DNA of 64,000 nucleotides from an uncultured Nitrospiraceae bacterium (GTDB lineage Bacteria; Nitrospirota; Nitrospiria; Nitrospirales; Nitrospiraceae). Positions 24,657 to 39,923 of this stretch are shown here, in pieces. The first letter of the stretch is position 1. The number at the start of each line of letters is the position of its first letter. The notes below the pieces were generated by a model. The model was not told the DNA's origin, made no database searches, and worked only from the letters and a program-made list of their open reading frames with translations. Made by a program: the position numbers and the translations under genes. The stretch is from positions 256,001 to 320,000 of the forward strand of contig CAVPLT010000007.1 of the NCBI GenBank assembly GCA_963706325.1, written 5' to 3'.

Positions 24657-24902
24657 ATGATTAGCGCTGAATCTGTGACTACATTCATTCGCCAGATGTT
24701 TCCTGACGCCGCAGTGACGGTCATCGACAAGACCGGCACACAGGACCATTTGATCGTAAGGGTGACCTCAGACGGGTTTCTTGATAAAAATCTGCTGGAC
24801 CGACATCGAATGGTGTACCAGGCACTGGCAATTCCAATGAAAGACGGACGGATTCACGCCTTGGAGATTTCTGCCAAAACCAAGACTGAAGCACGGCAAT
24901 AG
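24657..24902 (+). CDS. BolA/IbaG-family protein
   Basis: DH..V.V.SDGF..K.LLDRHRMVYQAL..IHALEI. Confidence 0.9.
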   Translation: MISAESVTTFIRQMFPDAAVTVIDKTGTQDHLIVRVTSDGFLDKNLLDRHRMVYQALAIPMKDGRIHALEISAKTKTEARQ

Positions 24903-24912
24903 GGAGAGATAT

Positions 24913-25239
24913 ATGGCTGATCAGATCGATGAAGAAATTCAGAAAGAAATCAAAGCGAATAAGATTTTGATCTATGGCAAAGGCACGAAGACGATGCCGA
25001 TGTGTGGCTTCACCAGGGAAACCATGCAATTTTTCGATAAATACGGCTATCCGTATGAACTCGTCGACGTGTTGTCCCAGCCGGCCAAACGCGACGCGTT
25101 GACCAAATTGACGAACTGGCCCACTCTACCGAAGGTATTCATCGACGGACAGTTTTTTGGCGATACGGACATCCTGGATCCGATGGAAGCCAAAGGCGAA
25201 GTCGTACCTCTGCTGAAGAAAGCCTTCGGCGCCGAGTAG
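24913..25239 (+). CDS. Monothiol glutaredoxin (Grx4/GrxD-like)
   Basis: KGT..MPMCGFT, WPTLPKVFIDG. Confidence 0.9.
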   Translation: MADQIDEEIQKEIKANKILIYGKGTKTMPMCGFTRETMQFFDKYGYPYELVDVLSQPAKRDALTKLTNWPTLPKVFIDGQFFGDTDILDPMEAKGEVVPLLKKAFGAE

Positions 25240-26776: not shown

Positions 26777-27511
26777 TTAGATTCCCCACCCGCCGCTGAG
26801 ATGCAGGTTCGCGCCGTTGACGTAACGCGCATCATCGCTCAGCAAGAATCGCACGGCGGCCACGGTGTCCGCCACACTTCCGATATATCCCGCTGGAATT
26901 CGTTTGACCACTCCAGCCAGTTCCTCGGGTGGTGCGCTGCCAGAATCGATAAAGCCGGGGGAGATGGCATTGACCGTGATGCCATAAGGAGCCAGCAGTT
27001 TCGCCAGCGTGCGTGTCAGGATCAGCACCCCGGCCTTGGCGATGTAGTGGCCTGTCACATCCGGCTGGGCCACCATCTGGTCCGCATTGGCCATACCGAA
27101 GTTGATGATCCGTCCCTGCTTCCTCGCCTTCATCCCCGGCGCCACCGCTTGTCCCAGGTAAAAGATAGGATGCAGGTTTCCGTCGAACATCTCACGCCAG
27201 CCCGCCGTTGTTTCGTCGAATAGGTTCACGCGATGGTAGGGGCCTGCGCCATTGATCAGCGCATCGATGGCGCCCCATTCCCGCTCGACCTGCGCGGCCA
27301 ATTGTGTGGCGGATTCGGGGTCAGACACGTCGCATTTTACGGCTAGAACCTGACCCCCGCGCGCGACAATCTCCTTGCTGGTCTCCTGAGCCGCTTCCGC
27401 GCTCGTGCGATAACAAATGGCGATCGACCACTGTTGTGAGGCCAGATCCAGCGCAATCGCGCGCCCGATCCCTTTTGCGCCACCAGTTATAAGGGCGACT
27501 TTGTTTGCCAT
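26777..27511 (-). CDS. SDR-family oxidoreductase with atypical catalytic motif
   Basis: TGGAKGIG, CYRTS, ITVNAISPG; HYIAK in place of YxxxK. Confidence 0.88.
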   Translation of the reverse strand: MANKVALITGGAKGIGRAIALDLASQQWSIAICYRTSAEAAQETSKEIVARGGQVLAVKCDVSDPESATQLAAQVEREWGAIDALINGAGPYHRVNLFDETTAGWREMFDGNLHPIFYLGQAVAPGMKARKQGRIINFGMANADQMVAQPDVTGHYIAKAGVLILTRTLAKLLAPYGITVNAISPGFIDSGSAPPEELAGVVKRIPAGYIGSVADTVAAVRFLLSDDARYVNGANLHLSGGWGI

Positions 27512-27783
27512 ATATTCCTCGCTGTTTGGATGCCTGAAAAGTCCGCCGGAATCTTCCTTCGTCATTGAGGCTTGAGCGCATCGGCACAGAGTCATTCAGG
27601 CCGACAGCGCTGGATCACCGCTCGCCGTCGTCCACAAACCCTGCATCCATCAGTCTGCCTGTCGTCGACTTGCTGGGACCGTACCGGACAGCTTTTTAGA
27701 AGAATCCGCAGACGCGCGCGAATTTATCGGTCACGCATGATAGTCGGCTGTTGAGGCCGTTAGGATGACTGCTCAGCGGCCGC

Positions 27784-28536
27784 TTAGATTTGGCGTGTTC
27801 GAAGGCGTTTCGCGAGCAATTCCAACGTGCCTGCCGTTCGCATTGAGAATACCCGTTCTTGCTTAGGCCGTGTTTTGTCCGCGGCGCTCTCGTCGATCAA
27901 CGCCTCAAGGTTATCGATGGTGTCCACATCGCTCCAGGGCAGGAGGAGGGAGATCGTTAATCCTGCCGCAATGGCCTTTTGCTGCGTGAGGGCCATGACG
28001 CCATCTGTGGACCAGGGAATGTTTATGAACAGGTCGTGATGTGGACGGGTCAGCCCTATGAGATAGTACCCGCCGTCGATGGCTGGACCAATCACTACAT
28101 CGTGATGAATGAGCGACTCCATGGCATCGCGATAGTGTGTGAGCGGCAGCGATGGCACATCGGTGCCCACGAGGCAGATCCGCTTGTAGCCCTGACGAAA
28201 AAGGTGATCGAACGCGTGATGCATCCGTATTCCGAGATCGTCGCCCTGCTGGTCGAGAAGCGTGACACCGTGGCGGGCTTCCATGATGCGAAAAAAGACA
28301 TGGCTGCTTGATGGGGCGCAGGCGAGAAATCGATCAACTGGAAGTTTGAACTTGCCGACGGCGGCCTTGGTGCGCTCGAGTGTATCGAGTACGAAGCTGC
28401 CGTGGAGAGTCGCCGCCTCGTCTTCGGTCAGGGCGGGCGTCAGCCGTGACTTCACCTGCCCCGGGATCGGGGCCTTGGCGAAAATCACCAAGGCTGCAGG
28501 CATCTTTCCCTGTCGTTCGGGCGTCTTACTAGTCAT
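27784..28536 (-). CDS. TIGR04282/DUF2064 CofC-like transferase
   Basis: IFAKAP.PGQVKSRL, QQGDDLG.RM, GTDVP, GPAIDGGYYLIG, DVDT. Confidence 0.9.
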   Translation of the reverse strand: MTSKTPERQGKMPAALVIFAKAPIPGQVKSRLTPALTEDEAATLHGSFVLDTLERTKAAVGKFKLPVDRFLACAPSSSHVFFRIMEARHGVTLLDQQGDDLGIRMHHAFDHLFRQGYKRICLVGTDVPSLPLTHYRDAMESLIHHDVVIGPAIDGGYYLIGLTRPHHDLFINIPWSTDGVMALTQQKAIAAGLTISLLLPWSDVDTIDNLEALIDESAADKTRPKQERVFSMRTAGTLELLAKRLRTRQI

Positions 28537-28540
28537 TCAT

Positions 28541-29269
28541 TCATCTCGCGGTGCGGTAAAACCGTTGCAATCGATGCGGACTCACCCCGATCCAGTACAG
28601 GAAGCGCAGGGTCCACATCAAGACAATTGTGCGGATTGGGCCGTTGTGTTCCCAGCGACGGAAGGCAGTGACGACGCATGTGGTGAGTGGAATAAGGTGT
28701 CCGGCTCGTTTGAGGCGCCGCGTGAAATCGATATCTTCCATGAGCGGAATATCCGCGAATCCGCCGAGACGCTCAAAGACCTCCCGGCGGACGAAGAGGG
28801 CCTGGTCGCCGGTGGCAATGCCGCTCCATTTGGATCGTAGGTTCATCATGCGCGCGACAAGTCGAGCCATTGCTCGGTCAGAATCGAAGCGAACGTTGAA
28901 CCGCCCACCGACGGCAGTATCGTCCCGCAGTGCTTGGGAAATGGCCAGTGTGGCATCGACTGGGAGCAGGGTGTCGGCATGCAGGAACAGCAGCACATCT
29001 CCGCGGCAGCCATTGGCGCCGGCATTGAGCTGGCGGGCACGGCCTGGTGTCGACGACAACAGGCGAATGGAGTCGGGTGCGGAGGCATGGCCGACAGAGG
29101 GGACAGGGCGCGATTGCGTCGCGAATGATTCTACAAGAGCGCGGGTGGCATCGGAACTGCCGCCGTCCACGACGATGACATCGTCGAATCCGAGCGCGAC
29201 AGTGTGGGAAAGAGTACGGCCGATAAGGAGCGCTTCATTCAAGACCGGGAGGATGACCGTGATAGTCAT
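28541..29269 (-). CDS. TIGR04283 GT2-family glycosyltransferase
   Basis: ILPVLNE, VVDGGSSD, GRARQLNAGA, LFLHADT, TGDQALF, PLMED. Confidence 0.9.
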   Translation of the reverse strand: MTITVILPVLNEALLIGRTLSHTVALGFDDVIVVDGGSSDATRALVESFATQSRPVPSVGHASAPDSIRLLSSTPGRARQLNAGANGCRGDVLLFLHADTLLPVDATLAISQALRDDTAVGGRFNVRFDSDRAMARLVARMMNLRSKWSGIATGDQALFVRREVFERLGGFADIPLMEDIDFTRRLKRAGHLIPLTTCVVTAFRRWEHNGPIRTIVLMWTLRFLYWIGVSPHRLQRFYRTAR

Positions 29270-29335
29270 CGGCGGAGAAAGGCGACCGGCTTGTTCAGCG
29301 TCGCGCGCTCAGAGCATGGCACGATGCACCGTATG

Positions 29336-29737
29336 TCAAACCGTTCTTTTGGGTTCGCGAAACATGAAATACATGACCACGAAGATGGTAGACCAGAAGA
29401 CCACCTGCTTGTGCCAGAACAGCACCTCGCCATAATGGAAAAATGCCAAGCTGATCAGGACGGAACCGGCCATCAAGGAATAGCGGACGGTCGGATTCTC
29501 AACGACCGCGTTAGCCCAGACGGCGATGCCGCTAAAGTAGATCAACAGCGGGACGACGTTGATTTCGAACCCGCCGCTGATCGAAAGAAACACATCGAGG
29601 AATCCGATGAACATCAGGGCCGTGCCGATCATCATCCCAATGACATGGGCCTGGCGGTCGGCGTTGCTCTCATCGTCAGGGCGGTGTGCAGTTGTGAGCC
29701 GACGAGTCGAAGGTTCCGGGAGGTCGCTGGGTGCCAT
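29336..29737 (-). CDS. Small four-TM membrane protein
   Basis: Hydrophobic segments; starts 2 nt after the dcd stop. Confidence 0.75.
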   Translation of the reverse strand: MAPSDLPEPSTRRLTTAHRPDDESNADRQAHVIGMMIGTALMFIGFLDVFLSISGGFEINVVPLLIYFSGIAVWANAVVENPTVRYSLMAGSVLISLAFFHYGEVLFWHKQVVFWSTIFVVMYFMFREPKRTV

Positions 29738-29739
29738 AA

Positions 29740-30891
29740 TTAGGCCTTAAAATGTTTGCTGAGGGTGAGGGCTTGCCGCTGGTATGACGAGCCGAGCGTG
29801 GTGCCGTACATCCGTGCCGGTACCGCTAACATCTGATCATACACTACTTTGAAGAAGGTTTGTCCGTCATGAATGAGGAACGGCACATCATGCGGACGGA
29901 CCTCCAATACGACCTGTGTGCCTCGCATTCGCCCATCCCCATAGCCGAAACCCGGGTCGAAGAATCCCGCATAGTGAGTGCGTAGCTCACCACAGGCGGC
30001 CTCGTAGGCGACCATTTCGGCGGCATAACCGGGCGGTACTCGAATGCGTTCTTTGGACGCCAAGATATAAAACTCTTCCGGCTCCAGCAGCAAACTGTCC
30101 TGCCGGTGCCGCTTCAGGGGCTCCCAGAAATCCAATGCGGCATAGTGCCCGATTTTCGACAGGTCGATCACATGACTATTTTTCTTCGCCCGAAAACCGA
30201 TCACCTGGTCCTCGCGTTCGCTGCCGGTCAGATCGATCCGCAAAAAAAGCCCTCGTTCGGTTCGGAACTCATTGGATCGGAGCGGTTTCGGAGTCGGTGA
30301 ATTGTGGAACAGCAGCGGCTCTGCGGCATGAATCTTCTGCAGGGCGGCATCCGATACGGTGGCGTCCTTGCGTATGAAGCGAATTTGGTTCAGCGAATCA
30401 CCAGTTCGCACTTTGATGGCAAAAGAGCGTGGCACGACCTCGAGGTAGAGCGGCCCTCGGTACCCGGCGCGAATTTCATCGAAGCCGGCGTTCAAATCGG
30501 TGACGACCCGGGTGAACACGTCCAGCCGTCCAGTCGTACTTTTGGGGTTGGCACGGGCGCGGACAGTCGTAGGCAACCGCAGATGTTCCAGGAGAGGCAC
30601 CAGATACACATGACCCTTTTCTAAAATAGCGCCCTGCGTGAGATCCATCTCGTACATCACGAGGTCGGACTGATAAAAGTCGAGGACATTGAGGCGATTG
30701 CTGATCGGGGACAACTCGGGGAGGAAGCTGCTGATCAGCCGGTAGGCTTTCTTGCCGAGCCGCAAATCAAGACTGGCCGGTTGAATTTGCCGATCTTCAA
30801 TCGGACGATCCGATGTAATGACACCCCGAGTGATGAGGTCGGCGATCTGCTGATAGGGCAAAATGCCCTTGGACGAACCGGCAGGTTTCAC
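29740..30891 (-). CDS. dcd: dCTP deaminase, long two-domain type
   Basis: IQPASLDLRL, ANPKSTTGRLDVFTR, HYAGFFDPGFG, VLEVR. Confidence 0.88.
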   Translation of the reverse strand: MKPAGSSKGILPYQQIADLITRGVITSDRPIEDRQIQPASLDLRLGKKAYRLISSFLPELSPISNRLNVLDFYQSDLVMYEMDLTQGAILEKGHVYLVPLLEHLRLPTTVRARANPKSTTGRLDVFTRVVTDLNAGFDEIRAGYRGPLYLEVVPRSFAIKVRTGDSLNQIRFIRKDATVSDAALQKIHAAEPLLFHNSPTPKPLRSNEFRTERGLFLRIDLTGSEREDQVIGFRAKKNSHVIDLSKIGHYAALDFWEPLKRHRQDSLLLEPEEFYILASKERIRVPPGYAAEMVAYEAACGELRTHYAGFFDPGFGYGDGRMRGTQVVLEVRPHDVPFLIHDGQTFFKVVYDQMLAVPARMYGTTLGSSYQRQALTLSKHFKA

Positions 30892-32021
30892 AGGGGTTCT
30901 CCCCCTCCCTCGCAGCCGTTACTGGTTGCGGCCCATGAGGGGTGAGCGCCGACCATAGGCAATTCGCGTCCCTGAGCTGATGCAGGCTGCGGGTAGTGGT
31001 ACGTTTTGTTTTCGTAATTTCTCAACACCGCGCCGTCTTCATCAAGATGGACGAGATATTCCGCGGGAAGCAGCGGGATTTTGCCGCCGCCGCCAGGGGC
31101 ATCGATCACAAAATGTGGTACTCCCATCCCGCTGGTGTGGCCTTGGAGTGACTTGATAATGTCCAGCCCTGTTTCCACCGAGGTCCGGAAATGGTTGGTC
31201 CCCTTGGTCAGGTCCGCTTGGTAGAGATAGTATGGCTTCACGCGCGCAAGCAACAGTTGATGCATCAGACGTTTCATGATCTCCGGGTCATCGTTGACAC
31301 CCTTGAGTAGCACGGTCTGTGCGCCGAGCGGCACCCCGGCGTCGGCTAACATCCCGCAGGCGCGTTTGACCGCCGGTGTCAATTCGTCCGGGTGGTTGAA
31401 ATGAAGGTTCATATAGAGCGGGTGATATTTTTTCACCAGCTCGCAGAGTTTCGGCGTAATGCGCTCGGGGAGGCTGCCCGGCACGCGCGTGCCGATGCGA
31501 ATCAATTCCAAGTGAGGGATGGTCCGCAGCGACTTGAGTACTCGTTCCAATAGGTTGTCGGGCAACAAAAGCGGATCTCCCCCCGAGAGGATGACGTCCC
31601 GCACTTCGTGATGCTCGCGCAGATAGGCGATCGCTCTGTCCAGCTCGCCTTTTTTGAGAAATCCTGGCTTGCCCACCAGTCGCTTGCGTGTACAAAACCG
31701 GCAATAAATCGGGCACTGATTTGTGACCATCAAGAGGACACGATCCGGGTACCGATGAACGAGATGGGGCACGGGACTCATCAGGTCCTCTTCGAGCGGA
31801 TCATCCTCCGCGTCCGCGTCCGCCATCTCTGCGCGATCGGGGACGACTTGTTTCCAGATCGCATCGCCCTTTTCTTTAATCGTGGCCAACACCGTTGGAG
31901 TGATCCGCATGGGATACTCCCCCACGATGTCTTCAACTTCTTTGGGATCGACACCAAGCCGATCGGCCAGGTCTTTCGGCTTGACTACGCTTTGAGCCAG
32001 GATGCGTCTCCATTCCTCCAC
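30888..32021 (-). CDS. KamA-family radical SAM/PLP aminomutase
   Basis: LVHRYPDRVL, CPIYCRFCTRKR, SGGDPL, HFNHPDE, VLLKGVND, PYYLYQ.D, DAPGGGGKIP. Confidence 0.93.
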   Translation of the reverse strand: MEEWRRILAQSVVKPKDLADRLGVDPKEVEDIVGEYPMRITPTVLATIKEKGDAIWKQVVPDRAEMADADAEDDPLEEDLMSPVPHLVHRYPDRVLLMVTNQCPIYCRFCTRKRLVGKPGFLKKGELDRAIAYLREHHEVRDVILSGGDPLLLPDNLLERVLKSLRTIPHLELIRIGTRVPGSLPERITPKLCELVKKYHPLYMNLHFNHPDELTPAVKRACGMLADAGVPLGAQTVLLKGVNDDPEIMKRLMHQLLLARVKPYYLYQADLTKGTNHFRTSVETGLDIIKSLQGHTSGMGVPHFVIDAPGGGGKIPLLPAEYLVHLDEDGAVLRNYENKTYHYPQPASAQGRELPMVGAHPSWAATSNGCEGGGEPL

Positions 32022-32300
32022 GTGTCTATCCTTTCGCTTGTACCCATCTGACAGGGTTATACATACCCTCGCCAGCTTTGTTCAGACGCTCAGCCTGCTG
32101 ATCAACGGCAGCGTCGCCTCTTCGCTCGCACGGAATGTTCCGTCGCCGTTCTGCCCGTCGTCTCCGCTTCACGTGGTGGTTGGTTCGAAACCCTCTTGCT
32201 TCCGACAGGGGGCTTGCTGAGCGTTGATGTGTGTGGCTTGCGTGGCGTGCCTTTCGTTCCGCGGTTTCCGGTGCGAGATGTTCGGCTCTGGACCAAGGTC

Positions 32301-32546
32301 TCACTGGTCGGCCTTGTCATAGCGCTGGTCGAGGTGGGCAAGAATCTCGTGGGTTTCCGTCAGGATGGTATCGCCATCTTTCAGGACCGGTACATAGTAC
32401 TGCCCCGACACTTCATAGACCTGGGCACGCATCGGGCGAAAGTCCGGTACCACGATGTCGTCATAGGGGATGTTCAGTTCGCTGAGACGATCCCGAACTA
32501 CCGCGCAGTCTGGACACCATTGGACATGATAGAGCGTCAGTGCCAT
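32301..32546 (-). CDS. Dithiol glutaredoxin-like protein
   Basis: WCPDC, VSGQ..VPVL.DG. Confidence 0.85.
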   Translation of the reverse strand: MALTLYHVQWCPDCAVVRDRLSELNIPYDDIVVPDFRPMRAQVYEVSGQYYVPVLKDGDTILTETHEILAHLDQRYDKADQ

Positions 32547-32610
32547 GAATACCTAAACGAAATTGGTTGAATGGTCATGCGTGCCGGTGCGGGTGATGTT
32601 CCTGCGGTCA

Positions 32611-34134
32611 TCAGAGCACCCTCGGAGGAACAGTCGGCTCCATCGCGCAGGGCGCCATGATGGCGTCGACCATGCCGTGAATAACTTTTTTGTCGGGAGG
32701 ACAGAGGGTGGCGAGGATTCCTCCGAGTTCTGCCTTGTCGCCGACGACAAAATAATAAGGAGACAAACGAGCACGTCCAGACATCGGCACCACCCTATCG
32801 GTTCGCTCGTCGAGATAGGCGGACTCGAAGAGACGCCCTTTGTGAAACTCCTGCAAAATATAGGGGGTGGTCGAAAAGGCTTGGAGCGCCTGCTCCAGCG
32901 CCGTAGCCCACTCGACCTGCGGCAGATCATGGCCGATCGACACCCCTCGGCTACCCCAAGCCAGTTCAGAGAATCCCGACGGCTTGAGCACGAGTTGGCG
33001 CTCTTTTTGGCTGGATTGTGCCAGACGGCGAAAATCGGATAGGGCCCGGCCGCCCACCGTCAGCCCCGGGATGATAGCTGTAGGGGGCACGGGTCGTGGG
33101 TCAAGAATCCAGGTCCGTGGCAACAGCCGTTCCAAATGTTCACGGGTCGCGATGGTCAGAGTCTGCTGCCAGAAGGGCGTAAGTTCCGGATGATGAAACA
33201 AGGCGAAGGCCAGCTTCTCTTCAAGTGCGGGCTTATAGGGCGGCGTAACGGTGACATGGCCTTTTTTGGCCGCATACATCATCAGCTCGGCCTTTGGAAT
33301 GTTTTTCAAATCGAACAGTTCAAAGAATCGATAGAGCAAGCCGATGCGCCGCGGTCCGTCTGGTTCGTGAAGATAGAGGCCTTCTTCTGAAAAATGGATC
33401 GCTCGCGGTTCGACGCAAAAGGCCTGATAGCCGATCTCTCGCAACCGTTGAGCCATCCATTCCATTTCCGACCGGTATTCCTTAGCCTCGTCCGAGACGA
33501 CGATCGCGAGGCAGCCTGCTTGGTCGCCCTGCTGAGCCCGCACCATGGAGGCGAACCCCTGCAGCATGCCGTCACGGCCGGCAATCAGGGGAGAGCGCTC
33601 GGGTTGGGTGTGAGGTAGGGGATTGTCTCTGGCGATCTGGTTGTCATAGGCTCGGGTCAAGCACCCCGTCAGGCCGATTCCGCCCGGAACCGAATCAAGC
33701 TCCGTGATGACCATGCCGTCGGCGGTAGGAATGACATCCGGTCGAATGATGCCGGGAATGAGATTTCGGAAGCGATTCATTCGGCTATACGTGACGAGCG
33801 ACTCCGGCTTGCCTTGGTCGAGATAGGCGGAGACCCATGCGGGTTGAACTCCGCGTATGCTCTCTTGATAGAGGCGGTTCAAGGCTCGATAGAAAGCCAG
33901 GAGATCTTGTCCCAACTGTTGAAAGAACGCCACATCGGAAGGGGCAAGCCACAGGGGTGTTGGAGCCACACGAAAGCGAGGCGGTAGAACCGAGGAACTG
34001 CTCGGCCCAGTTGCACTTCCAGTCTCGGTGTAGCCGTAGACCCCGGCAAGAACTAGGTCATCACGGATTGCGAGACAACGTCGGCGGGCTTCGTCTGAGT
34101 TCAACGGTTCATGTAGATGTTGTGCCAGTGCCAA
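32611..34134 (-). CDS. Uncharacterised ATP-grasp-like ligase (circularly permuted/GspS-like)
   Basis: IRPD, TELDSVPGG.G, LYRFFELFD, EEK, VLKPSG..WGSRGV.IG, ILQEF. Confidence 0.7.
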   Translation of the reverse strand: MALAQHLHEPLNSDEARRRCLAIRDDLVLAGVYGYTETGSATGPSSSSVLPPRFRVAPTPLWLAPSDVAFFQQLGQDLLAFYRALNRLYQESIRGVQPAWVSAYLDQGKPESLVTYSRMNRFRNLIPGIIRPDVIPTADGMVITELDSVPGGIGLTGCLTRAYDNQIARDNPLPHTQPERSPLIAGRDGMLQGFASMVRAQQGDQAGCLAIVVSDEAKEYRSEMEWMAQRLREIGYQAFCVEPRAIHFSEEGLYLHEPDGPRRIGLLYRFFELFDLKNIPKAELMMYAAKKGHVTVTPPYKPALEEKLAFALFHHPELTPFWQQTLTIATREHLERLLPRTWILDPRPVPPTAIIPGLTVGGRALSDFRRLAQSSQKERQLVLKPSGFSELAWGSRGVSIGHDLPQVEWATALEQALQAFSTTPYILQEFHKGRLFESAYLDERTDRVVPMSGRARLSPYYFVVGDKAELGGILATLCPPDKKVIHGMVDAIMAPCAMEPTVPPRVL

Positions 34135-34407
34135 TGCAATATCCTCGATGCTCGCAACGCAATCGCCTGCATCGCACGCGCGGATTGGATTCGAGGTGGA
34201 ACAAATCGTACCATGGGCTCTTGCGCTGGTACAAGTCAGCGCGCCGGCAGAGCTGGGTCAGGCTGCTCACGATCGACAGTAGCTCGGACGACCGAAGGAA
34301 CCGCTTCGAACAGTAGGAGCTAATACGGGTTAGTGCTACAATGCGGCCACGTCTCATGACGAGACGAGCATAGTCGCTCCGGTCTCCCTGACGAGTTGCT
34401 CGCGCCC

Positions 34408-35862
34408 ATGACTGGCTCTCCTTTACAAATCGTTCCCAGTGCGACCTGTCTGCACTGCGAGGTTTGTTGTCGGTTCCCTGAGCGGGACAGTTTTTTGCGG
34501 CCGTTCTTCACGGCGGAGGAAATTGAGTCTGCGATTAAAGCGGGTATTTCATCTGTCCACTTTCCGAATCCCGCCGGGACACAAGTGGATCTTGTGCCCA
34601 ATCCGGTGGATGAAGGTTACATCTGCCCCGCGTTCGACCCCGCCACCTCCCATTGTCGAATCTATAACGTGCGTCCCTTGGACTGTCGACTGTATCCGTT
34701 TGCATTGATGTGGGATGACATGCACAAGCAGGTCTTGCTCGGGTGGGATACGAAGTGCCCCTACATGCGCGACCTGTCCTCGTCGATCATCAATCAAGCG
34801 GCGTATGAGGTGGCGCAGTGGATAGAGCAGGACACAACGGTTGCGACCCTCGCCCGCTATCCACGGCTGATTGGAAAATTTCAGGACGATGTAATCGTGG
34901 TACGTCCTCTCAAACGAGTGACGGAGCAGGTGCGGCAGGGCGGCGTCGCGGTAGCTCTGCAGCCCCTGACCATCCAGGACCGAAGCCGTTTTGAAACGGC
35001 ACTGGCGCTCAGTGTCGACTATCATGCCATGCCCTTGGCTGCGGCATCATTTGCCTACCATTACATCTGGCGGCAGGTCTTGAATTATTCATGGGCCGTC
35101 TTGGGCGACGGCCTCTGTCTGTTTGCCGAAAGTTCTGATGGCGTCTTCATGGCCTTGCCTCCTCTCGGCATCGGCCCGCTTGCGCCGCGGCTCGATGCCG
35201 CCTTTCGATACATGCGCGAACGGAATGGTGACTCGTCAGTGACGCGAGTAGAAAATGTGTCGGAGGCCTGCGCTAACGAGGTCCGGATGTTGGGGTATAG
35301 GGTGATCGCCAAAGATCCCGACTACCTCTATGCCGCAGATGATATGGCTGATCTTACGGGTGAACCTTACAAATCTCACCGCGCAGCCTGCAATCGATTC
35401 GTGCGAGAGCGGGGTGGAGTATTGGAACCCTACGACCCACGCGATCGAACCGACTGCCTGAGTCTGTTTCACGAATGGAGTGTGCAGAAAGAGGCAGCGG
35501 GTCTCGATGCCTGGGGGGGTGCGCTATTGCAAGATGCGGCCGGCGCGCACGAGACGGCTCTGAGCTCGGCATTGGAGCTGGGCCTCACGGGTGCCGTGGT
35601 TCGAGTCGATGGCCGCATTCGGGCCTATACGATAGGGCTGTGGTTGAACCCGATCGTGTTTTGCATCTTGCTGGAAGTGGCCGACCGAAATATTTTAGGC
35701 CTCGCGCCGTTTATTTTTCGCGAATTCTGTCGCCAAGCCCGGGCTAACGGGGCATGTTGGATCAATACGATGGATGATTCAGGGTTGCCCGGCCTCGCGC
35801 GATCAAAACACTGGTATCATCCTGCGCGGTTATTGCCGAATTATATCGTGATGGAGTCCTGA
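34408..35862 (+). CDS. Fusion of YkgJ-type CxxCxxCC domain and DUF2156 (MprF C-terminal-like GNAT) domain
   Basis: CLHCEVCC, CPAF, CRIYNVRPLDCRLYPF; DYLY..DMADL.G..Y, IN..DD.G.PGLA.SK..YHP. Confidence 0.8.
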   Translation: MTGSPLQIVPSATCLHCEVCCRFPERDSFLRPFFTAEEIESAIKAGISSVHFPNPAGTQVDLVPNPVDEGYICPAFDPATSHCRIYNVRPLDCRLYPFALMWDDMHKQVLLGWDTKCPYMRDLSSSIINQAAYEVAQWIEQDTTVATLARYPRLIGKFQDDVIVVRPLKRVTEQVRQGGVAVALQPLTIQDRSRFETALALSVDYHAMPLAAASFAYHYIWRQVLNYSWAVLGDGLCLFAESSDGVFMALPPLGIGPLAPRLDAAFRYMRERNGDSSVTRVENVSEACANEVRMLGYRVIAKDPDYLYAADDMADLTGEPYKSHRAACNRFVRERGGVLEPYDPRDRTDCLSLFHEWSVQKEAAGLDAWGGALLQDAAGAHETALSSALELGLTGAVVRVDGRIRAYTIGLWLNPIVFCILLEVADRNILGLAPFIFREFCRQARANGACWINTMDDSGLPGLARSKHWYHPARLLPNYIVMES

Positions 35863-38963: not shown

Positions 38964-39083
38964 TGGATGAGTCGGCGGACAGTCGGGGCACTCCCGCCGC
39001 CGGAGAGCGGCTTGAACTTCCCGCTTATTTCCGTTTATCGTGGCGACCGTGCAGGACATGGCATGCAACGCAGGAGTATTGGC

Positions 39084-39923
39084 ATGAACGAGGCGCAAGG
39101 GGCGTCGGCTTTGAAAGGGCAGGAACTCGACATCGATCGCTATCGCATCGCGCGTGAGCCATTTTACGCCGAGGTCCGCGGCGAGGTGGGACTGTTCACG
39201 ATAGCGGCGCAAAGCCGTATGCCGGTGATGCTTAAAGGGCCGACGGGCTGCGGCAAAACGCGGTTCGTGCAGCACATGGCCCATCGCTTGGGCCGTCCGC
39301 TCATCACGGTCGCGTGCCATGAGGATCTCACGGCATCGGATCTCGTGGGGCGTTATTTGCTGAAGGGACAAGAGACACTGTGGATGGACGGGCCCCTCAC
39401 GCTTGGGGTCAAACATGGAGCCATCGTCTATTTGGACGAGATCGTGGAAGCGCGAAAGGACACCACGGTTATCATTCACCCGCTGAGCGATGACCGGCGG
39501 CTTTTGCCGATTGAAAAAAAAGGCCAGGTGATTGAAGCCGTCGACGATTTCATGCTGGTCATTTCATACAACCCTGGCTACCAAAGCATTCTCAAGGATC
39601 TCAAGCAGAGCACGAAGCAACGGTTTATGGCGATCGAGTTCGACTATCCGGTCCCGGCTATCGAGAGCCGGGTGGTGGCCCATGAAGCCGGGGTGAGCGC
39701 GGAGCTCGCGCAGCGGCTTGTGAAGGTTGCGGAGAAAGTCAGGAACCTTAAGAACCACGGCCTGGAAGAAGGCGTGAGCACCAGATTGTTGATCTATGCG
39801 GCCACATTGATCAAACAGGGGGTGCCCGCCGATCGAGCTTGTGAAGTCGCCATCGCCCGTCCCATTACTGACGACCCGGATATGCTGCGCAGTATCATCG
39901 AAGTAGTCAAAGCGATCTTCTAG
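39084..39923 (+). CDS. CbbQ/NirQ/NorQ-family MoxR AAA+ ATPase
   Basis: [55 protein letters not shown]. Confidence 0.95.

Follow-up and report, generated by a model that had tools for sequence, protein, structure and literature searches.

The window considered here is a stretch of 64,000 nucleotides from the genome of an uncultured Nitrospiraceae bacterium (GenBank assembly GCA_963706325.1, contig CAVPLT010000007.1, positions 256,001 to 320,000 of the forward strand). Between its positions 26,777 and 35,862 lies a run of nine genes, in which an unannotated 507-amino-acid protein (32611..34134, minus strand), a predicted amide ligase, is followed by an 81-amino-acid CxxC protein (Grx; 32301..32546, minus strand) and a short KamA-type enzyme (30888..32021, minus strand). 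KamA is a radical S-adenosylmethionine/pyridoxal phosphate (PLP) enzyme and a predicted lysine 2,3-aminomutase, and Grx is glutaredoxin/GST-N-like by its Pfam assignment (GST_N_3/Glutaredoxin). The ligase and kamA, often accompanied by Grx, form the unit that recurs across phyla. This core is a real and widespread pathway with beta-lysine as its likely substrate, and the six remaining genes are neighbours passed on with this part of the chromosome.

The host genome measures 4.2 Mb and is 96% complete. The closest homologues of the ligase are proteins named Nitrospira, and because the guanine-cytosine level is even across the region, the locus is no island. Scans of the region for promoters and terminators gave signals at or below chance.

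Predicted activities of the ligase and KamA

The ligase matches no Pfam or NCBIfam model, and a comparison of its sequence with the PDB returned nothing usable. Its predicted structure (pLDDT, predicted local distance difference test, 89.9) is more informative. Foldseek pairs the model with human glutathione synthetase (E 3e-17), and structural alignment gives Z scores of 22-26 to YjfC, YgiC, human glutathione synthetase, GspS, and Cp1B at 9-14% identity. This Z range covers 26 entries of the fold group, the next unrelated row standing at Z 12.8, and the protein language-model neighbours of the ligase agree with the assignment. The fold thus predicts an amide ligase of the circularly permuted ATP-grasp group. 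An earlier note on this DNA, made from the letters alone, had already used the term ATP-grasp; the predicted fold bears it out, and domain models do not.

Conservation was scored over 261 distinct homologues. Residues R131, D133, E145, D147, K307, and K384 are invariant in 261/261, and we take them to be the metal, phosphate, and nucleotide sites of the fold. Six acidic residues (E216, E223, E272, D275, E305, and E306) and R454 are invariant as well; the acidic set would therefore suit a substrate with two amines. Within the fold group, eukaryote-type glutathione and homoglutathione synthetases (2HGS, 8FBZ, 5OES, 1M0W, and 3KAL) resemble the ligase over the full chain (template-modelling score ~0.6, Z 24-26), and the RxD, ExD, and lysine motifs are kept, with ExD in the ligase where glutathione synthetase has ExN. 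The ligase differs from them in its low identity (10-14%), its strongly acidic invariant pocket, and its KamA partner, and PF03917 and PF03199 match neither the window ligase nor 40 family members. GspS, YgiC/YjfC, Cp1B, and the CP_ATPgrasp_1/2 families share the fold group at Z 22-26, but at 9-13% identity, with other gene partners and no member-level match. At gathering score no CP_ATPgrasp Pfam matches the window ligase; weak matches occur in 1-5 of the 40 members, and CP_ATPgrasp_2 scores weakly in 5/40 (best E 9e-4).

The proposed chemistry has precedent in the fold, because homoglutathione synthetase couples gamma-Glu-Cys to beta-alanine, likewise a beta-amino acid, and Cp1B phosphorylates a small acid with amino acids as nucleophiles, as described in PMC12568646. 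The same text terms YgiC and YjfC peptidylpolyamine synthetases.

KamA matches the lysine 2,3-aminomutase of Clostridium (2A5H) with E 3.5e-106. Its CxxxCxxC motif and residues R112, D270, D307, and K314 are invariant in 43/43 sequences, and the four residues align with R134, D293, D330, and K337 of 2A5H, which we take to be substrate residues and the PLP lysine. The protein passes the KamA subfamily model TIGR00238 and falls below the cut-offs for AblA (TIGR03820, 428 vs 525 bits), EpmB (234 vs 369 bits), and the glutamate and arginine aminomutases. It stops before the C-terminal region of the AblA model and has no C-terminal CxxC. KamA is predicted to make beta-lysine from L-lysine. A glutamate or arginine aminomutase was considered and rejected, given that both aspartates are kept and the scores lie below both cut-offs.

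Co-occurrence of ligase and aminomutase across phyla

In 151 Nitrospirota genomes the ligase occurs in 63 and KamA in 67; every ligase-positive genome (63/63) has KamA, vs 4/88 ligase-negative ones. Some KamA is found in 91 of 251 Chloroflexota genomes and the ligase in 29, and the top 29 KamA scores (402-442 bits, the next best being 369) coincide precisely with the 29 genomes that carry the ligase. KamA is also present in 24/24 further ligase genomes, comprising 17 Poribacteria, 2 Nitrospinaceae, 1 Chloroflexota, N. moscoviensis, and 3 Latescibacterota. In Poribacteria it is found in 17/17 at 54-59% identity, unlinked to the ligase.

Physical linkage adds to this evidence. The two genes are adjacent in 13/29 ligase-bearing Chloroflexota, and both Nitrospinaceae keep the order ligase-grx-kamA. 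Among 80 metagenome loci with flanks of up to 6 kb, kamA lies directly downstream of the ligase on 17 contigs of non-Nitrospirales type, and two of these ligases fall into clusters whose proteins carry the labels Limnochordia and Armatimonadota. Adjacency is therefore seen in Nitrospirota, Nitrospinota, and Chloroflexota, plus contigs labelled Limnochordia or Armatimonadota through their ligase clusters. An aerobe-only distribution of the ligase was considered and is doubtful, since ligase clusters carry these two labels and the lifestyle of both groups speaks against it.

The adjacent KamA proteins come from three lineages, namely a clade of 42 rows, one of AblA type, and one that is highly divergent. 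In a quick tree, the 42-row clade has a Shimodaira-Hasegawa-like approximate likelihood ratio support of 93; it carries no C-terminal CxxC and includes no ligase-negative genome. The AblA-type protein adjacent to a ligase (at locus L316) passes TIGR03820. Because different aminomutases repeatedly fill the adjacent slot, their recruitment suggests that the ligase needs the beta-lysine product rather than the KamA protein itself. In both the ligase and the KamA trees, Nitrospinaceae fall within Nitrospirota and Chloroflexota form two groups, topologies that would fit co-transfer of the two genes.

The ligase family is large, with 7,888 matches among 8,000 candidates scored, and the gene is present in a single copy, which whole families keep without loss. 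No relatives were found in the plasmid or viral contigs searched, and at the DNA level kamA matched nothing in E. coli. Carriers include nitrite oxidisers, comammox relatives, bioleaching Leptospirillum-like genomes, and sponge symbionts.

Some loci show other surroundings. At 13 Chloroflexota loci the ligase-unlinked kamA adjoins sufC/sufB-like Fe-S assembly genes, and at five Poribacteria loci kamA lies directly 3' of a cyclophilin-like gene, both judged by sequence appearance. Six Latescibacterota-like loci have the ligase followed by larE, which encodes a sacrificial sulfur transferase (its identity tested with a model at L163), and a deformylase-like gene. In Nitrospinaceae (L203 and L206, G170:C17), two additional, distant KamA-like genes carry different active-site motifs.

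Candidate products and the glutaredoxins

The likely course of the pathway follows from these predictions. KamA would convert L-lysine to beta-lysine, and the ligase would spend ATP to form an amide bond between beta-lysine and a small partner, yielding a cytoplasmic beta-lysyl compound. The reaction may proceed through an acyl phosphate, as in glutathione synthetase, with beta-lysine held in the pocket lined by the six invariant acidic residues and R454 binding the carboxylate of an amino-acid partner. We consider a small beta-lysine amide the probable product. A literature search found no description of the pair. The large unnamed ligase family thereby gains a concrete test, with two enzymes and one likely substrate. 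If the scheme is true, beta-lysine would have a further fate beside modification of elongation factor P (EF-P), an acetylated osmolyte, and lysine fermentation.

Several observations count against this assignment. Three Latescibacterota ligase genomes have EpmA and merely a distant long KamA (38-40% identity); in family f8, KamA is present in 7/7 genomes but unlinked and outside the main KamA clade; and a Verrucomicrobiota-like ligase clade shows no kamA within flanks of up to 6 kb. The profile counts ignore kinship and may reflect perhaps 5-7 independent lineages. The pocket roles rest on the positions of glutathione synthetase motifs, not on a residue-level superposition, and substrate and product are predicted. 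Two soil RNA assemblies gave only short scattered contigs, none spanning ligase-grx-kamA, and speak neither for nor against co-transcription. The small CxxC Grx orthologue is absent in 29/63 ligase-positive Nitrospirota. Other glutaredoxin data speak against a thiol product in particular. A second, monothiol glutaredoxin is found in 0/251 Chloroflexota, the 29 ligase genomes included, and gives only weak matches in 2 Poribacteria. Family f13, which appears to be Leptospirillum-like, has neither glutaredoxin, and the glutaredoxin pattern is confounded with lineage.

The partner of beta-lysine is the weakest step of the scheme. Cysteine or a cysteine-containing unit is favoured, because glutaredoxins confined to ligase genomes would need a thiol and no route to one is known there. 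Strong orthologues of the small CxxC Grx occur in 34/63 ligase-positive vs 0/88 ligase-negative Nitrospirota; the gene lies between ligase and kamA in Nitrospinaceae and after kamA in two contigs, one of them in an Armatimonadota protein cluster. The monothiol (CGFT) glutaredoxin, encoded outside the nine-gene run at 24913..25239 on the plus strand, is distributed similarly (42/63 vs 0/88, and in both Nitrospinaceae). It reads GDTD in 118/120 close homologues, where the E. coli and plant proteins read GGCD, and in 37/37 locus copies (some redundant) the second Gly of the GG motif is replaced by Asp. GG is named as a glutathione-binding motif in PMC4765768. Because of this Asp, the protein would suit a more cationic ligand, and the remodelled motif suggests a thiol that is not glutathione and is more cationic. 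The monothiol glutaredoxin is thus a possible user of the product. Across Nitrospirota and Nitrospinaceae loci the protein has G/A-D-T-D for GGCD and WPTLPK for WPTFPQ, and in the window it forms a pair with bolA (24660-25239).

The thiol context of the host was examined through biosynthetic genes. In the 96% complete genome, no GshB, gamma-glutamylcysteine ligase (PF04107 and PF04262), or BshC was found, the MshC model match lies below its cut-off, and a PF08886 search gave no match with its controls silent as well. No GshB passing TIGR01380 occurs in 80 ligase genomes; GshB-like genes turn up in five Poribacteria, and the single one compared with models passes PRK12458. PMC3435265 describes the identity of the small thiol of Leptospirillum as an open question. 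The host thus encodes glutaredoxins with no route found to glutathione, bacillithiol, or mycothiol, and the ligase-KamA pair is a candidate answer. KamA and the ligase would build a beta-lysyl thiol, which the small CxxC and the remodelled monothiol glutaredoxins would use. Beta-lysyl-cysteine, or an extension of it, may be a new low-molecular-weight thiol, with beta-lysine replacing the gamma-glutamyl unit, and serve as a glutathione surrogate in nitrite oxidisers and their relatives, which would themselves lack glutathione. This more specific proposal is tentative, and on present evidence we would sooner doubt than assert it. If true, it would add a new redox-buffer chemistry to those based on glutathione, mycothiol, and bacillithiol.

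The ligase might instead attach beta-lysine to a protein other than EF-P, or to a cell-envelope polymer. Its housekeeping-like behaviour, single-copy and retained in whole families, would agree with such a role, and YgiC/YjfC, which accept peptides and share the highest Z score, belong to the fold group. Yet no gene for a target accompanies the pair, Grx is no obligate carrier, as its absence from many ligase-positive Nitrospirota indicates, and the longest alignments are to the small-molecule glutathione synthetases (411-432 aligned residues vs 352-364 with YgiC/YjfC). We regard a macromolecular target as unlikely.

A link through shared regulation or old gene order, with the ligase using other substrates, is a weaker explanation still. 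Old gene order does persist here, with dcd staying beside kamA across Nitrospirota in two dcd families, and the Verrucomicrobiota-like ligases have no adjacent kamA. However, co-occurrence holds when the genes are apart (16/29 Chloroflexota, 17/17 Poribacteria, and 7/7 in family f8), and three KamA lineages fill the ligase-adjacent slot. Such a link is decidedly improbable.

Neighbouring genes and known beta-lysine fates

Besides the ligase, Grx, and KamA, the run contains six genes. Five follow kamA on the minus strand: a long dCTP deaminase (dcd, PRK07559; 29740..30891; over the cut-off of NF005734 and the single tblastn match in the genome), a small membrane protein (29336..29737), a TIGR04283 glycosyltransferase (28541..29269), a TIGR04282 transferase (27784..28536, single copy), and a short-chain dehydrogenase/reductase (SDR; 26777..27511), whose start at 27511 is preceded by a GAGGA site. 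The sixth, a CxxCxxCC-DUF2156 (LPG_synthase_C) fusion recognised by Pfam, is divergent (34396..35862, plus strand) and separated from the ligase by 261 nucleotides. The family labels that the earlier note had given to KamA, dcd, TIGR04283/04282, Grx, and the fusion were confirmed with Pfam and NCBIfam. Its layout also stood with regard to open reading frames, span, orientation, and three tight junctions (a 4-nucleotide kamA/dcd overlap, 2 nucleotides from dcd to the membrane protein, and 4 between TIGR04283 and TIGR04282), but not with regard to unity. Gaps of 64 (ligase-grx), 279 (grx-kamA), 66 (membrane protein-TIGR04283), and 272 nucleotides (TIGR04282-SDR) interrupt the run, and the wide ones leave room for at least two transcript breaks.

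The earlier note had read all nine genes as one cluster for a beta-aminoacylated and/or glycosylated small molecule, lipid, or nucleoside. Neighbourhoods of about 20 kb around the ligase were compared for 60 ligase-positive Nitrospirota genomes out of the 62 besides the host, 32 of them Nitrospirales and 28 outside the order, a few of the latter ending early at contig ends. The gene order from kamA to SDR is kept in 31/32 Nitrospirales loci, which together with the tight junctions would favour a single cluster. However, the membrane protein (32/32 Nitrospirales loci), the SDR (31/32), the DUF2156 fusion (23/32), TIGR04283, and TIGR04282 are all absent beside the ligase at the 28 loci outside the order, where kamA occurs in 22, dcd in 19, and grx in 1. 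Unrelated flanking genes are equally order-confined (a kinase in 22, cbbQ in 28, and yggU in 18 of the 32), the TIGR pair bears an arsenosugar name with arsS and arsM elsewhere, and the 272- and 279-nucleotide gaps lie inside the run. The long run is order-level synteny and not one cluster; a nine-gene pathway is very improbable, and a false cluster is thereby removed. Most of the genes travel together through synteny alone, the ligase and kamA (with Grx) being exempt, and the beta-amino-acid amide pathway proposed in that note survives for these genes and not for the rest.

The dcd gene adjoins kamA in 51/60 Nitrospirota loci, and elsewhere it follows kamA only on some unassigned metagenome contigs. 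The loci from Nitrospinaceae, Chloroflexota, and Poribacteria gave no dcd match, the Chloroflexota loci extending only 1.5 kb beyond the ligase. It is probably an old Nitrospirota neighbour of kamA with a housekeeping role. At locus L068 (9563-10114) the slot after kamA holds a short TIGR02274 dCTP deaminase, tested with its model, and five further loci have a dcd similar by sequence to this short type, whereas other families have the long PRK07559 type. Two dcd types in one slot suggest in-place replacement in an old operon. In family f13, bluB (dimethylbenzimidazole synthase) is inserted between kamA and dcd (L079:9483-10259).

Replacement of EpmA by the ligase, with beta-lysylation of EF-P at Lys34, fares worst. 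The host has a Lys-type EF-P (PGKGG) and no EpmA, its sole near-full-length match being a 522-amino-acid frame read as lysyl-tRNA synthetase. EpmA is found in 0/63 ligase-positive Nitrospirota, in 0/48 ligase-positive Chloroflexota, Poribacteria, and Nitrospinaceae, and in 1/151 Nitrospirota overall. Many EF-Ps are listed with their modification unknown in PMC11388002. Against these points, the single EF-P has Arg at the site in 19/19 ligase-positive Chloroflexota tested (of 29) and Asn in 2/2 Nitrospinaceae, efp lies in no examined ligase or ligase-linked kamA locus, ligase and EpmA coexist in 3/3 Latescibacterota, and EpmA is in any case uncommon in these phyla (1/88; 1/29), so that EF-P was rejected as a general target of the ligase and this explanation is hardly credible. 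The Nitrospinaceae EF-P reads PGNK, with Asn at the usually modified site.

The pair works like AblA/AblB or EpmB/EpmA, which make and then couple beta-lysine, but belongs to neither. EpmA/EpmB also feeds beta-lysine from a short aminomutase without a C-terminal zinc motif to an ATP-dependent ligase; here the ligase is not synthetase-like, KamA falls under the EpmB cut-off, and many carriers have an Arg- or Asn-type EF-P. AblA/AblB likewise passes the product of a lysine 2,3-aminomutase to a beta-lysine-capping enzyme, giving the osmolyte N-epsilon-acetyl-beta-lysine, but the partner here is an ATP-grasp ligase instead of a GNAT protein, and the window KamA lies below the AblA cut-off. No efp, epmA, or ablB occurs near the run, as the earlier note had stated for the surroundings of the aminomutase, and the genome also lacks EpmA and AblB; an EpmA encoded elsewhere thus does not account for the aminomutase. 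AblB was found in 0/5 ligase genomes with positive control searches, and lysine 5,6-aminomutase (PF09043), an enzyme of lysine fermentation, matched 0/5 genomes with controls likewise silent.

The two transferases, named by NCBIfam for arsenosugar biosynthesis, lie outside the ligase-KamA module. Both pass their models, and the genome also encodes ArsS, which passes TIGR04167, with an adjoining ArsM-like methyltransferase below its cut-offs (C7:67009-69298, same contig). This locus is ~215 kb from TIGR04282/04283. All four proteins are thus present in one genome, as in an arsenosugar system, but split over two loci and unconnected to the ligase-KamA pair. The expectation that the TIGR pair travels with a radical S-adenosylmethionine system agrees with the presence of ArsS, though not with a tie to ligase and KamA. 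A literature search found no paper on the TIGR04282/04283 pair with ArsS, and the arsenosugar name comes solely from NCBIfam.

A CbbQ/NirQ/NorQ-type AAA ATPase (38967-39923 in the window) holds its position near the ligase in 28/32 Nitrospirales loci. The SDR, outside the module, was rightly singled out as odd. The usual SDR motif is YxxxK with a catalytic Tyr; this protein reads His-Tyr-Ile-Ala-Lys, and His replaces the catalytic Tyr in 75/78 aligned matches. Its best model is the pteridine/folate reductase TmpR, at a score below the cut-off.

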